A stretch of 64,000 bases of DNA, taken from the NCBI GenBank assembly GCA_026396175.1, contig JAPLXG010000006.1:76492-140491 (forward strand), read 5' to 3'. A program made the position numbers and the translations under genes. The DNA comes from Candidatus Moraniibacteriota bacterium. Its GTDB lineage: Bacteria > Patescibacteriota > Minisyncoccia > Moranbacterales > UBA2206. Of the stretch, positions 41,231-42,847 are shown in pieces (the stretch's first letter is position 1; each line of letters opens with the position of its first letter). The notes below the pieces were generated by a model. That model was given only the letters and a program-made list of their open reading frames with translations, had not been told where the DNA came from and ran no database searches.

Positions 41231-41369
41231 TGTCATTCTGAGCGAAGCCGAAGAATCTGCTATGGGTTATTGCAAGCTTTGCCATATTACAGAAAACTTG
41301 AGATAGCGGATAGCAGATCCTTCGACTCCATAAATTTTCTAACGAAAATTTATTCCGCTCAGGATGACA
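41231..41369. repeat. Family F MITE-like element copy 1 (TIR TGTCATTCTGAGCG ... CGCTCAGGATGACA; inner IR GAAGAATCTGCTAT/ATAGCAGATCCTTC)
   Basis: Nested inverted repeats read directly; second copy at 42719. Confidence 0.7.
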
Positions 41370-41407
41370 AAATTTAGTTTGATTAATTTTTTAATTTTAA
41401 AAAAACA

Positions 41408-42487
41408 ATGAAGTATGAAAAAGAATTTCCACTGCAAAAAACGAAAGTGGAAGGAGTCGAGAGAAAATTCAATTTGTCTGATTTAGACGAGAGAAAGGAG
41501 TATTTTGAAGCAAAAGTTGGTGAGGATATTGAGAAGTTAAAAAAGTATTTTGCCGAGGGAAAAACTTTTATCGCCTATTTTTTGGGCAAGAAAAATGCGG
41601 GCAAAGGAACATACACAAAACTTTTGATGGAAATCTTTGGCAAAGATAAAATTGGTCACATCTCCGTTGGGGACGTTGTGCGAGACGTGCACGCGGCGAT
41701 GGAAGATGAAAATGAAAAGAAAGAACTTTTGAGCTATCTGCACGAAAATTATCGCGGTTACATTTCTCCCGAGCAAGGTATCGAAGCTCTTTTGGGGCGG
41801 GATACAAAAACACTTTTGCCTGATGAATTTATTATGACCTTGGTGAAAAGAGAAATTGACAAGATGGATAAAAAATCTCTTTTCGTTGATGGTTTCCCAA
41901 GGAATTTCGATCAAATTTCTTATTCATTATTTTTTAAAGAACTGATTGATTACAGAAAAGACCCAGATATTTTCCTGGCGATTGATATCCCGGAAGCGGT
42001 GATTGATGAGCGGATGAAATATCGAGTAGTTTGCCCAATTTGTCACACGCCAAGAAACCTGAAACTGCTAGCGACAAAAGAAGTTGGATTTGACGAAGAA
42101 ACAAAGAAATTCTTTTTGAAATGCGATAATCCAGAATGCGATAATGTGCGGATGGTGGCGAAAGAAGGCGACAATATGGGAATTGAATCTTTGCGTGATC
42201 GATTGGAGATGGATGATAAGTTGATCAATAAGGTTTTCTCTTTGCATGGTGTTACAAAAGGAATGGTGAGAAATGCTGTGCCAGCGAGCGTGGCGAAAGA
42301 AACGGTAGATGACTATGAAATTACGCCCGAATTTTATTATGAGCGCGACGAAACAACTGGTGAAATTAAAACGCTTGAGAGACCTTTTACGGTGAAAGAC
42401 GACGAAGGAGTTGAAGTATATAGCCTAATGGCTCCGGCTGTCGTTACTTCGCTTGTGAAGCAGTTGGTGAAGACTTTGGGGTTGTAG
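41408..42487 (+). CDS. Divergent adenylate-kinase-like protein (359 aa; AK core with N- and C-terminal extensions and Zn-finger LID)
   Basis: P-loop GKKNAGKGT, NMP-binding ISVGDVVRD, DGFPRN, LID Cys4 (CPICHTPRNL...C..C); about 150 aa longer than canonical Adk. Confidence 0.65.
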   Translation: MKYEKEFPLQKTKVEGVERKFNLSDLDERKEYFEAKVGEDIEKLKKYFAEGKTFIAYFLGKKNAGKGTYTKLLMEIFGKDKIGHISVGDVVRDVHAAMEDENEKKELLSYLHENYRGYISPEQGIEALLGRDTKTLLPDEFIMTLVKREIDKMDKKSLFVDGFPRNFDQISYSLFFKELIDYRKDPDIFLAIDIPEAVIDERMKYRVVCPICHTPRNLKLLATKEVGFDEETKKFFLKCDNPECDNVRMVAKEGDNMGIESLRDRLEMDDKLINKVFSLHGVTKGMVRNAVPASVAKETVDDYEITPEFYYERDETTGEIKTLERPFTVKDDEGVEVYSLMAPAVVTSLVKQLVKTLGL

Positions 42488-42505
42488 GTTTTTATAGAGC
42501 AACTT

Positions 42506-42670
42506 ATGTCGGTTCAATTCTCTGAATTGAACCTTGCATTTCTAATCAGCTAGCCGTAATAGCGCCTATTGAAAAAATATGTTAGCGTCCCATTATTGCA
42601 AAAGATGCATAAGAACTAAATGGTTCAGGTCAGCCTGCCTGCCGGTAGGCAGGGAGATACTGAACCGACA
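42506..42670. repeat. Family K palindromic element (TGTCGGTTCAATTCTCTGAATTGAACC ... CTAATCAGCTAGC ... GGTTCAGGTC[REP]GGAGATACTGAACCGACA)
   Basis: Reverse complement of element at 63009-63136 aligns over its full length; contains family C REP at 42633-42652 in a hairpin loop. Confidence 0.7.
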
Positions 42671-42718
42671 CGGATACAAAATGACAAACAGGTTTGCTAT
42701 CAAAAAGACAACTATTAT

Positions 42719-42847
42719 TGTCATTCTGAGCGGAGCCGAAGAATCTGCTCTCAATTATCGCTAGCTTTGCTAAAAATAGTAAAAACTACGATTACCGATG
42801 GCAGATCCTTCGACTGCGTCCGAGTACGGACTTCGCTCAGGATGACA
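42719..42847. repeat. Family F MITE-like element copy 2 (direct repeat of 41231-41369 flanking the adk-like gene)
   Basis: TGTCATTCTGAGCGGAGCCGAAGAATCTGCT ... GGCAGATCCTTCGAC ... CTTCGCTCAGGATGACA. Confidence 0.7.

Follow-up and report, generated by a model that had tools for sequence, protein, structure and literature searches.

The window analysed here is a stretch of 64,000 nucleotides from a Candidatus Moraniibacteriota contig, and it stops 133 nt into secY (secY start at 63868). Within it, an open reading frame related to adenylate kinase (here called the AK-like gene) lies between recA and a convergent rpmB and is bracketed by two copies of a palindromic repeat, family F. A second palindromic family, K, is also represented. 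The features of the locus are listed below.

40189..41226, + strand: recA, upstream neighbour of the AK-like gene; an ORF 96, 92 and 84% identical to RecA_N/RecA_C (Pfam) genes in the relatives L084, L002 and L085
41231..41369, + strand: family F copy 1, a 139-nt nested palindrome (REPIN/MITE-like) 4 nt after the recA stop; covariance model 93 bits, full model
41408..42487, + strand: AK-like gene, second adenylate-kinase-family paralog of Moranbacteria (ORF, Pfam, homologs, AF2, hhalign)
42508..42669, + strand: family K palindromic element, copy 1; 80% column identity in alignment with copy 2
42632..42651, + strand: 20-nt REP-like palindrome AGCCTGCCTGCCGGTAGGCA inserted in K copy 1 and absent from K copy 2
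42719..42847, + strand: family F copy 2, a 129-nt nested palindrome in the same orientation as copy 1; covariance model 83.6 bits
42853..42880, both strands: intrinsic terminator acting in both directions and separating the recA/AK-like unit (+) from rpmB (-), with a 12-bp stem and T-runs on both strands
42900..43073, - strand: rpmB (ribosomal protein L28), convergent downstream neighbour; an ORF with a Ribosomal_L28 gene at the same position in L002 and L213
63010..63135, - strand: family K copy 2, inverted relative to copy 1

The first-pass annotation had described two same-orientation F copies around the gene, and the covariance model places them at exactly 41231-41369 and 42719-42847, finding two full copies on the + strand and no third in the 64 kb. 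The K palindrome between the gene end and the distal F copy does carry a REP insertion, as had been proposed, and the insert corresponds to the CCTGCCTRCCGGYAGGCAGG palindrome (family D7) seen at four other sites in the window. No terminator-like site was found between recA and the AK-like gene, and the two are probably co-transcribed. The bidirectional terminator downstream is conserved in L084 and accounts for the sub-threshold Rfam leader and sRNA matches (Phe_leader).

The AK-like ORF begins with ATG and encodes 359 amino acids. The adenylate kinase motifs by which it was originally recognized stand where they were reported, with GKKNAGKGT at aa 60-68, ISVGDVVRD at aa 85-93, DGFPRN at aa 161-166 and the four LID cysteines in CPIC (aa 209-212) and CDNPEC (aa 239-244). 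Pfam PF00406 (ADK) matches the protein at 52.4 bits, above its gathering cut-off of 26.8. Against the 19 NCBIfam adenylate kinase models, including the TIGR01351 and PRK00279 equivalogs, the protein falls far under every curated cut-off; its best model is adk at 70.4 bits, compared with the TIGR01351 cut-off of 168. By HMM score the protein is placed nearest the long bacterial adk, at 70 bits, while the UMP-CMP kinase family reaches 40 bits. The three-domain fold of adenylate kinases (CORE, NMP-binding and LID) is present, and the AF2 model has a pLDDT of 87.3 and a pTM of 0.86. Relative to E. coli Adk, the protein is longer by 145 aa, in line with an earlier estimate of about 150. The extra length comes from a ~54-aa N-terminal extension, a ~25-aa insertion in the NMP-binding domain, a LID enlarged by ~13 aa and a beta insertion of ~50 aa that precedes the C-terminal helix; the first-pass annotation had named N- and C-terminal extensions and an enlarged LID, but missed the NMP-domain insertion. 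The corresponding features are the following.

41408..41569, + strand: N-terminal extension, aa 1-54 (extended arm and long helix 26-49), family-specific; AF2 pLDDT 91-97 for aa 11-50
41585..41611, + strand: P-loop GKKNAGKGT, aa 60-68; hhalign aligns K66 with E. coli K13
41660..41905, + strand: enlarged NMP-binding region, aa 85-166, from ISVGDVVRD to DGFPRN; R92 corresponds to R36 and R165 to R88
42023..42169, + strand: enlarged Cys4 LID, aa 206-254, with R206 (corresponding to R123), C209, C212, C239, C244 and K252
42275..42430, + strand: beta-sheet insertion near the C terminus, aa 290-341, flanked by the last core strand and the C-terminal helix (AF2)

The N-terminal extension has no Pfam or PDB match, and its residues F7, P8, Y32 and F33 are nearly invariant in an alignment of 70 sequences. 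The NMP-domain insertion carries a conserved YRG motif (aa 115-117). In the C-terminal beta insertion, AF2 places strands at 307-313, 320-326, 328-330 and 336-340 with pLDDT >90, and no PDB sequence hit covers the region. Homologs of the added modules were sought in Pfam (E-value <=1) and by searching the family profile against PDB sequences, and both matched the adenylate kinase core only. Searches for a defence or phage role of the putative kinase in PADLOC and PHROGs gave no match.

Residue conservation was read from 70 AK-like family sequences spanning 29-97% identity. Invariant positions comprise K66, G88, D89, R92, D161, G162, P164, R165, Q169, R202, R206, C209, C239, K252 and D255, together with K61, K62, G65 and T68 beside K66 in the P-loop, while C212, C244 and R265 are nearly invariant. 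The metal-site residues of the Cys4 LID (C209, C212, C239 and C244) are thus conserved across the family. An hhalign comparison (98.9%) maps AK-like residues to E. coli K13, R36, R88, Q92, R119, R123 and R167. At the position of E. coli R156 the family has the invariant K252, and the DD pair (D158/D159) is replaced by E253-G254-D255, the RxDD motif of adenylate kinase reading KEGD.

The known enzymes most like the AK-like protein are the long-type metal-LID adenylate kinases (B. subtilis 1p3j; Desulfovibrio gigas 3l0p; PF00406, TIGR01351). Common to both are the P-loop Lys, the NMP-site equivalents of R36, R88 and Q92, the equivalents of R119, R123 and R167, and a four-cysteine LID. The AK-like protein differs in its 145 additional residues (N-terminal arm and helix, extra NMP-domain helix, longer LID and ~50-aa beta insertion), in a P-loop of the form KKxAGKGT rather than GxPGxGKGT, in the change of R156 to an invariant Lys and of RxDD to KEGD, in its sub-cut-off NCBIfam adk scores, and in a gene that lies outside the spc cluster alongside a true adk. 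The points that weigh against a kinase reading are the NCBIfam score of 70 versus 168 bits, the Lys in place of R156, KEGD for RxDD and the KKxAGKGT P-loop; a non-catalytic or ATPase-only role is conceivable. A literature search on adenylate kinases of Moranbacteria and Patescibacteria returned nothing relevant on the AK-like protein.

A canonical adk had been expected after secY, and with the window stopping where it does, any such gene lies beyond it. An exact look-up of the L15 of the window gave no match. Among relatives, the gene was found after secY in ~45 Moranbacteria loci. In the closest relatives (92, 90 and 82% L15 identity) adk follows secY, the gene order in the first being rplO-secY-adk-map, and from these relatives the genome of the window would be expected to carry one as well. 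An AK-like protein (P0005) and a canonical Adk (P0439) are encoded ~20 kb apart on a single 130,945-bp contig (ERZ27248448 k141_1639107), a spacing that matches the prediction from the layout of the window. For a second AK-like/canonical pair, the longest contig is 86,057 bp for both proteins. The separate adk after secY and the presence of both genes on one contig support the earlier suggestion of a second, specialised nucleoside-monophosphate kinase, for which the activity itself is predicted.

The canonical Moranbacteria Adk (216-217 aa, after secY; for example P0322 and P0439) belongs to the same superfamily, has a Cys-rich LID and occurs in the same genomes, but is only ~25-28% identical to the AK-like protein over ~155 aa. 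It also changes much faster. Between the closest relative, L004, and a genome with an AK-like protein 81% identical to that of the window, the canonical Adk is 59% identical, and the genome pairs behind these two values are comparable. The match of the AK-like core to Adk of other phyla is at least as good as its match to the canonical Moranbacteria Adk, and as judged from these scores the pair is not a recent duplication.

More than 120 AK-like homologs, mostly of 359 aa and 72-97% identical, are among the matches listed. L084, L085/86 and L213 share the block ftsK-rodZ-recA-AKlike-rpmB-M50, which in L002 is interrupted by additional genes on either side of the AK-like gene, those downstream including an AbiEii-domain gene. 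Identity of the AK-like protein to three relatives is 97, 90 and 81%, compared with 96, 92 and 84% for RecA, 80, 73 and 60% for FtsK and, in L085 only, 88% for EF-Tu. The dN/dS ratios of the gene are 0.014 and 0.022. These values, near 0.02, indicate a core gene, and on comparative grounds the AK-like gene is a core chromosomal gene of Moranbacteria (Patescibacteria) in its normal place. In distant family members the gene neighbourhood differs, and no conserved operon partner was found there. An MBL-fold gene lies within ~1.2 kb of the AK-like gene in all three distant members and represents a weak lead.

Turning to the repeats, an alignment of the two F copies gives 83% identity. Their end motif, GTCATYCTGAGCG, is present four times in the window as compared with 0.05 expected, in each case at an end of one of the two copies, and the terminal inverted repeat forms a 14-bp stem, TGTCATTCTGAGCG/CGCTCAGGATGACA. 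Both copies take the same Y-shaped fold (z-scores between -8 and -10 for RNA and between -6 and -8 for DNA), with RNA folding energies of -57.9 kcal/mol (z -9.0) for copy 1 and -58.2 kcal/mol (z -8.2) for copy 2. The hairpin fold accounts fully for the sequence, which is non-coding and without a transposase. In L084, which carries the 97% identical ortholog, the spacer between recA and the AK-like gene is 40 nt long and lacks F copy 1, and a different element occupies the position of F copy 2. No target-site duplication can be defined from this empty site, the flanks having diverged, and none was seen beside any of the six F copies read. When compared with MITEs, family F has the terminal inverted repeats, small size, non-coding character, dispersed multi-copy distribution and insertion polymorphism, and lacks the target-site duplication. 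Both F copies in the 64 kb flank one gene, for which the chance would be a few percent if insertion were uniform (a rough estimate), which calls for local hopping or a permissive hotspot as an explanation.

Beyond the window, a search of ~1 Mb of other Moranbacteria loci found F copies in L038 only, where four full and two half copies occupy spacers of the S10/spc operon within 20 kb, one of them immediately following the canonical adk. The arm sequences differ wholly between copies while the architecture is kept. The basic unit is a module of ~26 nt, GTC-X5-GAGCGNAGCGA-rc(X5)-C, and an F element consists of a left module and an inverted right module. The module stem covaries, 17 of 28 being perfectly complementary with eight different stem sequences. 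At least 120 metagenome stretches (GC 0.31-0.67) and 108 viral stretches contain the 5' module, and one 18-kb phage contig (L256/L295) holds at least nine full F doublets. In Rfam, F and K had no gathering-level match, and a permissive E-value of <=10 over 41150-43250 gave chance-level miRNA-type matches only. No RAYT or other transposase was found among the 20 window ORFs scanned or beside any F copy, and F modules are missing from the surroundings of the Y1_Tnp genes in L085 and L212. A literature search on the F repeat sequence and on palindromic repeats of candidate-phyla-radiation (CPR) bacteria returned nothing relevant. F may be an undescribed family of palindromic elements, one that spans contigs of very different GC content and also occurs in phages.

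REP/REPIN elements, which are reportedly mobilised by RAYT (Y1) transposases, offer a close likeness. Like them, F is built of ~26-nt imperfect-palindrome modules with a covarying stem, arranged as inverted doublets, and is extragenic, multi-copy, free of target-site duplication and variable in presence between relatives. Unlike them, F has a 5' motif of GTCA rather than GTAG, carries one or two extra variable hairpins in its doublets to give three- or four-way junctions, has no RAYT gene among the window ORFs scanned or adjoining any copy, and shares its module among very different GC contents and phages, a spread that is to our knowledge unusual for REP families. A second comparison is with the enterobacterial ERIC and neisserial Correia repeats, which are transcribed MITE-like elements. 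As with these, F forms palindromes of ~130 nt in spacers inside operons, would be transcribed as stable hairpins and varies in presence between strains. In contrast, it has no sequence similarity to them, no visible TA or other target duplication and no known cognate IS.

Taken together, the best account, and one that we consider probable, is that the AK-like gene is a core Moranbacteria gene for a second, lineage-specific paralog of the long-type zinc-LID Adk, co-existing with the 216-aa adk, and that the F repeats around it are separate insertions. The AK-like protein would be an active ATP:nucleoside-monophosphate phosphotransferase. The P-loop Lys66 and Arg206, Lys252, Asp255 and Arg265 of the LID would handle the donor phosphates, Arg92, Arg165 and Gln169 would hold the acceptor NMP, and the Cys4-zinc LID would close over the active site. 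The three added modules (the N-terminal arm and helix, the extra NMP-domain helix and the beta-sheet beside the donor-base pocket) probably alter the substrate range or tether the protein to a partner, and we propose that it is because of this module-conferred role that the protein is kept beside Adk under very strong purifying selection. The F repeats would stand outside the biology of the gene, as separate insertions of a small, non-coding, structured palindrome. Each would be a REPIN-like doublet, in which two ~26-nt hairpin modules in inverted orientation enclose variable hairpins; such elements would insert into short spacers between genes, be read through by transcription and occur patchily across genomes and phages.

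Two other readings of the gene need to be weighed. The 359-aa protein could be the sole housekeeping adenylate kinase of the lineage, enlarged and moved out of the spc cluster, an outcome that the first-pass annotation had named as overturning its own suggestion. It does keep GKGT, VGDxVR and DGFPR, which are partly lost in Moranbacteria spc-cluster Adk (some members read GKDT, MGNFLR and EGVPR), and in L043, also of Moranbacteria and belonging to the genome GW2011_GWE2_35_2- (LBQD01), secY is followed directly by map with no adk within 20 kb, so the AK-like protein could be the only adenylate kinase in some sub-lineages. Against this, both genes share one contig in the P0005/P0439 genome, which refutes the reading there, adk follows secY in the three closest relatives, and the canonical Adk retains K13, R36, R88, Q92, R119, R123, R156, D158, D159 and R167. 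A housekeeping adk would be expected directly after secY and as the only adenylate kinase; the AK-like gene is neither, and in relatives it is the 216-aa gene that holds that slot. As a description of the lineage, this reading is highly improbable. The other possibility is that the AK fold serves mainly as a partner-bound ATPase or macromolecule factor, by analogy with Fap7/AK6, an AK-fold protein of ribosome assembly, or as a kinase of a larger phosphorylated substrate rather than a soluble NMP kinase. Such a role may be suggested by conservation as strong as that of RecA and translation factors and well beyond that of the metabolic Adk, by ~145 extra residues that form confidently predicted surface modules without known homolog, by a location among recA, rpmB and ribosomal operon genes, and by the Lys at the R156 equivalent. 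However, R92, R165 and Q169 of the NMP site are all invariant, as expected for a bound nucleotide acceptor, and the neighbourhood changes in distant family members. We regard this alternative as quite unlikely.

For the repeats, the first-pass annotation had proposed that the F copies and the gene form a composite-transposon-like or recombination-prone cassette, moving or gained and lost as a unit. Two same-orientation copies around one gene, the sole copies in 64 kb, would fit such a cassette, as would variable flanks (the genes inserted in L002) and a 1,487-bp contig, recovered from five samples including SRR20698638, that is the only record found of the identical protein and starts and ends inside the two F repeats. 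Yet contig breaks at repeats are expected from assemblers for any multi-copy element, and the gene keeps its place between recA and rpmB in L084, L002, L085/86 and L213, at 97, 90, 81 and 75% identity, where the F repeats are missing; it is vertically conserved and, from its dN/dS, a core gene. The F copies, at 129-139 nt and non-coding, are not transposase-encoding insertion sequences, and neither they nor the F1-gene-F2 block are flanked by a target duplication. Their longest identical run is 16 nt, below the ~20-30 nt of identity usually needed for RecA-mediated exchange. In the relatives compared, the block is neither seen at other loci nor lost as a unit, and F sits singly in unrelated spacers elsewhere, namely the operon spacers of another Moranbacteria genome and a phage contig, the kind of dispersal that the first-pass annotation had taken as counting against a cassette. 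The cassette is therefore scarcely credible. It is also unlikely, if much less so, that the F elements are functional cis-acting RNAs, whether stabilising the mRNA, serving as processing sites or regulating the AK-like gene, instead of selfish insertions. The folds are very stable and keep their architecture while the arms differ completely, the six full and two half copies in the window and L038 all run along transcription inside operons, 1-4 nt after stop codons, and no terminator-like T-run follows the hairpin of F copy 1. On the other hand, F is missing from the equivalent spacers of close relatives, where the gene is equally constrained, and therefore is not needed for the gene. In addition, the stem sequences, beyond their pairing, are conserved across phyla and phages, which suggests that a mobilising protein recognises them; F matches no Rfam family; and with one wobble and one mismatch per strand, the pairing favours neither RNA strand.

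Returning to the preferred reading of a second Adk paralog beside separately inserted repeats, a bolder version can be put forward tentatively. The AK-like protein would be an essential, Moranbacteria-wide phosphotransferase with a job beyond that of Adk conferred by its modules, either as a broad (d)NMP salvage kinase or as a macromolecule-docked enzyme, and F an apparently undescribed family shared with phages. In the salvage version, it is possible that the AK-like protein replaces kinases missing from reduced genomes. In sub-lineages without an adk in the spc cluster, such as L043, it may be the only adenylate kinase.

For repeat-rich genomes, the case indicates that direct repeats flanking a gene should not be called a cassette without a check of synteny in relatives. 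The F doublet of ~26-nt hairpin modules, with its wide GC range and its presence in phages, may merit a study of its own. The AK-like protein is in turn a tractable subject, being small and soluble, with a confident model and clear predicted catalytic residues to mutate. Bacteria of the candidate phyla radiation have a stripped-down nucleotide metabolism and depend on salvage. Because of this, and because its rate of evolution throughout a candidate lineage is as low as those of RecA and EF-Tu, a second enzyme of the adenylate kinase family likely marks an essential step that is not yet understood.

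The window is from a Candidatus Moranbacteria genome (Patescibacteria/CPR), the label borne by all of its close protein and locus matches. The ORF of 359 aa that lies between recA and rpmB belongs to the adenylate kinase (AK) family and is referred to here as the AK-like gene. All of the elements that the first-pass annotation had named in this region were confirmed in place, and the layout is as follows:

36184-38550, plus strand: ftsK
38700-39707, plus strand: rodZ-like gene
Between the rodZ-like gene and recA, plus strand: ORF of 108 aa
40189-41226, plus strand: recA
41231-41369, plus strand: repeat F1
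41408-42487, plus strand: AK-like ORF, 359 aa
42508-42669: palindrome K1, carrying a 20-nt REP-like insert at 42632-42651
42719-42847, plus strand: repeat F2
42853-42880: bidirectional terminator
42900-43073, minus strand: rpmB
Beyond rpmB, up to the window end: M50 peptidase gene, then the rpsL-rpsG-fusA...S10/spc operons

The window breaks off after 133 nt of secY. At 63266-63736, two small ORFs have been inserted between rplO and secY, each headed by a copy of the leader 'AAAAATTAGAATTGGGCGAA..GGAGG'; in L004, the closest relative, the site measures just 24 nt. Neither the large 628-aa ORF between fusA and tuf (48527-50413) nor the 407-aa ORF at 13481-14704 has a Pfam match.

The AK-like protein is a second AK-family paralog, distinct from the housekeeping Adk. 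With E. coli Adk as the tblastn query, about 45 Moranbacteria loci showed a gene of about 210 aa some 1.4 kb past rplO, among them the window's three nearest relatives (L15 identity of 92, 90 and 82%). The nearest of these has the order rplO-secY-adk-map and a SecY N-terminus nearly identical to the truncated SecY of the window. Both genes also occur on one contig (ENA ERZ27248448 k141_1639107, 130,945 bp), where the AK-like protein P0005, 81% identical to that of the window, has a record range of 96306-117385 and the canonical Adk that follows secY, P0439, one of 82015-90665, a spacing as predicted from the layout of the window. The paralogy implied by the earlier reading of a second specialised nucleoside-monophosphate (NMP) kinase is thus borne out. 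The canonical protein retains all Adk catalytic residues. The core of the AK-like protein is no nearer to Moranbacteria Adk (25-28% identity) than to the Adk of other phyla, which makes the gene an old paralog as opposed to a recent duplicate. Several Moranbacteria loci differ in this region: in L043 (Candidatus Moranbacteria GW2011_GWE2_35_2-, LBQD01000001.1, 13099-15183), map directly follows secY and no adk lies within the 20-kb locus, and in L035, L042, L046 and L049-L051 neither secY nor adk lies within about 5-10 kb after rplO.

More than 120 AK-like homologs were found among the matches listed, mostly of 359 aa and 72-97% identical. Across three relatives, the AK-like protein (97, 90 and 81%) keeps pace with RecA (96, 92 and 84%), while the M50 peptidase stands at 83, 85 and 64% and FtsK at 80, 73 and 60%; EF-Tu and EF-G, compared with L085 only, are 88 and 85% identical. 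Canonical Adk is only 59% identical between L004 and the genome that encodes P0005 and P0439. Estimates of dN/dS for the AK-like gene are 0.014 and 0.022, with synonymous sites close to saturation. These figures mark it as a core gene whose constraint is unusually strong. When 1.8 billion cluster representatives were searched exhaustively, only 43 clusters came up at E < 1e-30; full-length relatives (320-372 aa) reach down to about 24% identity, and the named matches are all Patescibacteria. The family is distinct, modest in size and seemingly confined to that lineage. Three distant members have a gene of the MBL fold (Lactamase_B) at most about 1.2 kb away from the AK-like one (L210 1650-2240, L211 3983-4846, L212 7052-7756), and two of these three loci have NUDIX and Ham1-type nucleotide-cleansing genes nearby.

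The same-orientation F copies on either side of the gene had been taken for a composite-transposon-like arrangement or a recombination-prone cassette. A 1,487-bp Logan contig recovered in five samples begins and ends inside F1 and F2, but this is the expected assembler output at multi-copy or polymorphic repeats and gives no evidence of a circle. Comparison with relatives does not sustain the cassette. The ftsK-rodZ-recA-AKlike-rpmB-M50 block is shared by L084, L085/86 and L213 (97, 81 and 75% protein identity), and in L002 (90%) the gene is in place with unrelated genes inserted on either side; no F modules were found in any of these loci, so F is not needed by the AK-like gene. The recA-AKlike spacer is 40 nt in L084 versus 181 nt in the window. 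The final 27 nt or so ahead of the start codon are conserved, so what L084 lacks here is simply F1. On the other side of the gene, another palindromic element takes the place of K1 and F2 in L084, and the terminator is retained. F1 and F2 are non-coding, no direct duplication was found beside either copy or the whole block, and their longest common exact run, 16 nt, suits them poorly to homologous exchange. The composite transposon or cassette is accordingly rejected.

What then accounts for F1 and F2, the sole F copies in 64 kb, occupying neighbouring spacers? Under uniform insertion into some 55-60 spacers, this is estimated to be a coincidence of a few percent. K1 and the REP insert have accumulated in the same interval, as have other elements and genes in relatives. 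In L002, the upstream spacer gained AAA_14/DUF4143 and cell-wall hydrolase genes (6579-9939) and the downstream one an AbiEii-domain gene and a TrmB-like regulator (11188-14748), so the spacers around the AK-like gene are an insertion hotspot. The paired copies are most simply read as the product of a permissive hotspot, or of local hopping, around an essential gene.

The F repeat is a structured element far outside what chance would give, with its end motif observed four times in the window against 0.05 expected and fold z-scores of -8 to -10 for F1 and F2. Each copy is closed by a 14-bp stem (TGTCATTCTGAGCG/CGCTCAGGATGACA) and contains an inner stem (CGAAGAATCT/AGATCCTTCG), a central hairpin that varies and a 3' side hairpin whose sequence is wholly unlike between the copies while its pairing is kept in both. 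F consists of two inverted modules of about 26 nt, GTC-X5-GAGCGNAGCGA-rc(X5)-C, with X being ATTCT on the left and ATCCT on the right. Across metagenome loci the X5 stem covaries within the module, 17 of 28 being perfectly complementary with eight different stem sequences. This anatomy is closest to REP/REPIN elements, which F resembles as an extragenic, patchily present inverted doublet of short covarying palindromes with no target duplication; it differs in its 5' motif, GTCA in F versus GTAG. No RAYT for F was found among the 20 window ORFs scanned or by checking for F modules near the Y1_Tnp genes of relatives, Rfam families gave no match, and nothing on the sequence was found in the literature. 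The module is very widespread, with contigs of GC 0.31-0.67 among the metagenome matches listed. Viral contigs contain it in 108 stretches. One such contig (IMGVR_UViG_3300031555_011079, 18 kb) is from a bona fide phage: it encodes terminase, P22-type coat, scaffold and Gp15 proteins and carries at least nine full F-like doublets, so phages may be spreaders of the element. L038, another Moranbacteria genome, contains four full copies, with a fourth arm, and two half copies, all in S10/spc operon spacers 1-3 nt past stop codons and oriented with transcription, one directly 3' of canonical adk. Given this orientation bias, a side role at the RNA level as an intercistronic hairpin is possible.

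Other repeats share the window. Family K comprises palindromic elements, about 126-162 nt long, whose ends read GTCGGTTCA...TGAACCGAC; besides K1, a copy at 63010-63135 (minus strand) lies between rplO and the two small ORFs upstream of secY. The intergenic 20-nt palindrome CCTGCCTRCCGGYAGGCAGG occurs at 21557, 31375, 42632-42651 (inside K1), 55625 and 59995, and in P0422, a canonical Adk of a relative, it is seemingly inserted in frame in the LID and read as 'NACLPVGRE'. The D1-D3 repeat (about 114 nt, core ...CGAAAGCGCGCTACGAACGCGCCCATCCGAA...TTCGTAGATTCGTATTTAATTCGTAGTTTCGTATCGGTA) occupies seven successive S10/spc operon spacers at 55605-59118. The D5/D6/D11 family (6009-6182, 7551-7729 and 25317-25485; arms GGGAGAGGATGTC...GGTGAGGGCAAGGG and CCTTCTCCC...GAAGGGGATAT) adjoins pyrophosphatase, trigger factor/clpP and amidase genes, with a weak match to the R1 model at 25325-25462 (21.6 bits).

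Turning to the protein, the Pfam ADK threshold is cleared at 52 bits, and every curated adk cut-off is missed by a wide margin. Profile-profile alignment (98.9% probability) places the family-invariant K66, R92, R165 and Q169 at E. coli K13, R36, R88 and Q92, and R202, R206 and the nearly invariant R265 at R119, R123 and R167. All four LID cysteines are conserved. One catalytic position is changed, E. coli R156 being an invariant Lys252 (RxDD to KEGD). An alignment of 70 sequences gave a confident AlphaFold2 model (pLDDT 87.3, pTM 0.86). The 145 extra residues form four features:

aa 1-54: N-terminal arm and helix
NMP-binding domain: extra helix that contains the conserved motif YRG
LID: longer by about 13 aa
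aa 290-341: four-stranded beta insertion, placed after the last core strand and ahead of the C-terminal helix

In Adk, the loop at this last position contacts the donor base. None of the added features has a relative by sequence in Pfam or PDB. The conserved catalytic residues and LID cysteines, the confident model and the added features suggest an active NTP:NMP phosphotransferase with a Zn-LID and either altered specificity or a docking role. Catalysis, the other half of the NMP kinase proposal, is probable on these grounds, and both activity and substrate are predictions. As an AK-family paralog with uncharacterised add-ons, labelled only generically in databases, the gene is of moderate interest for CPR physiology.
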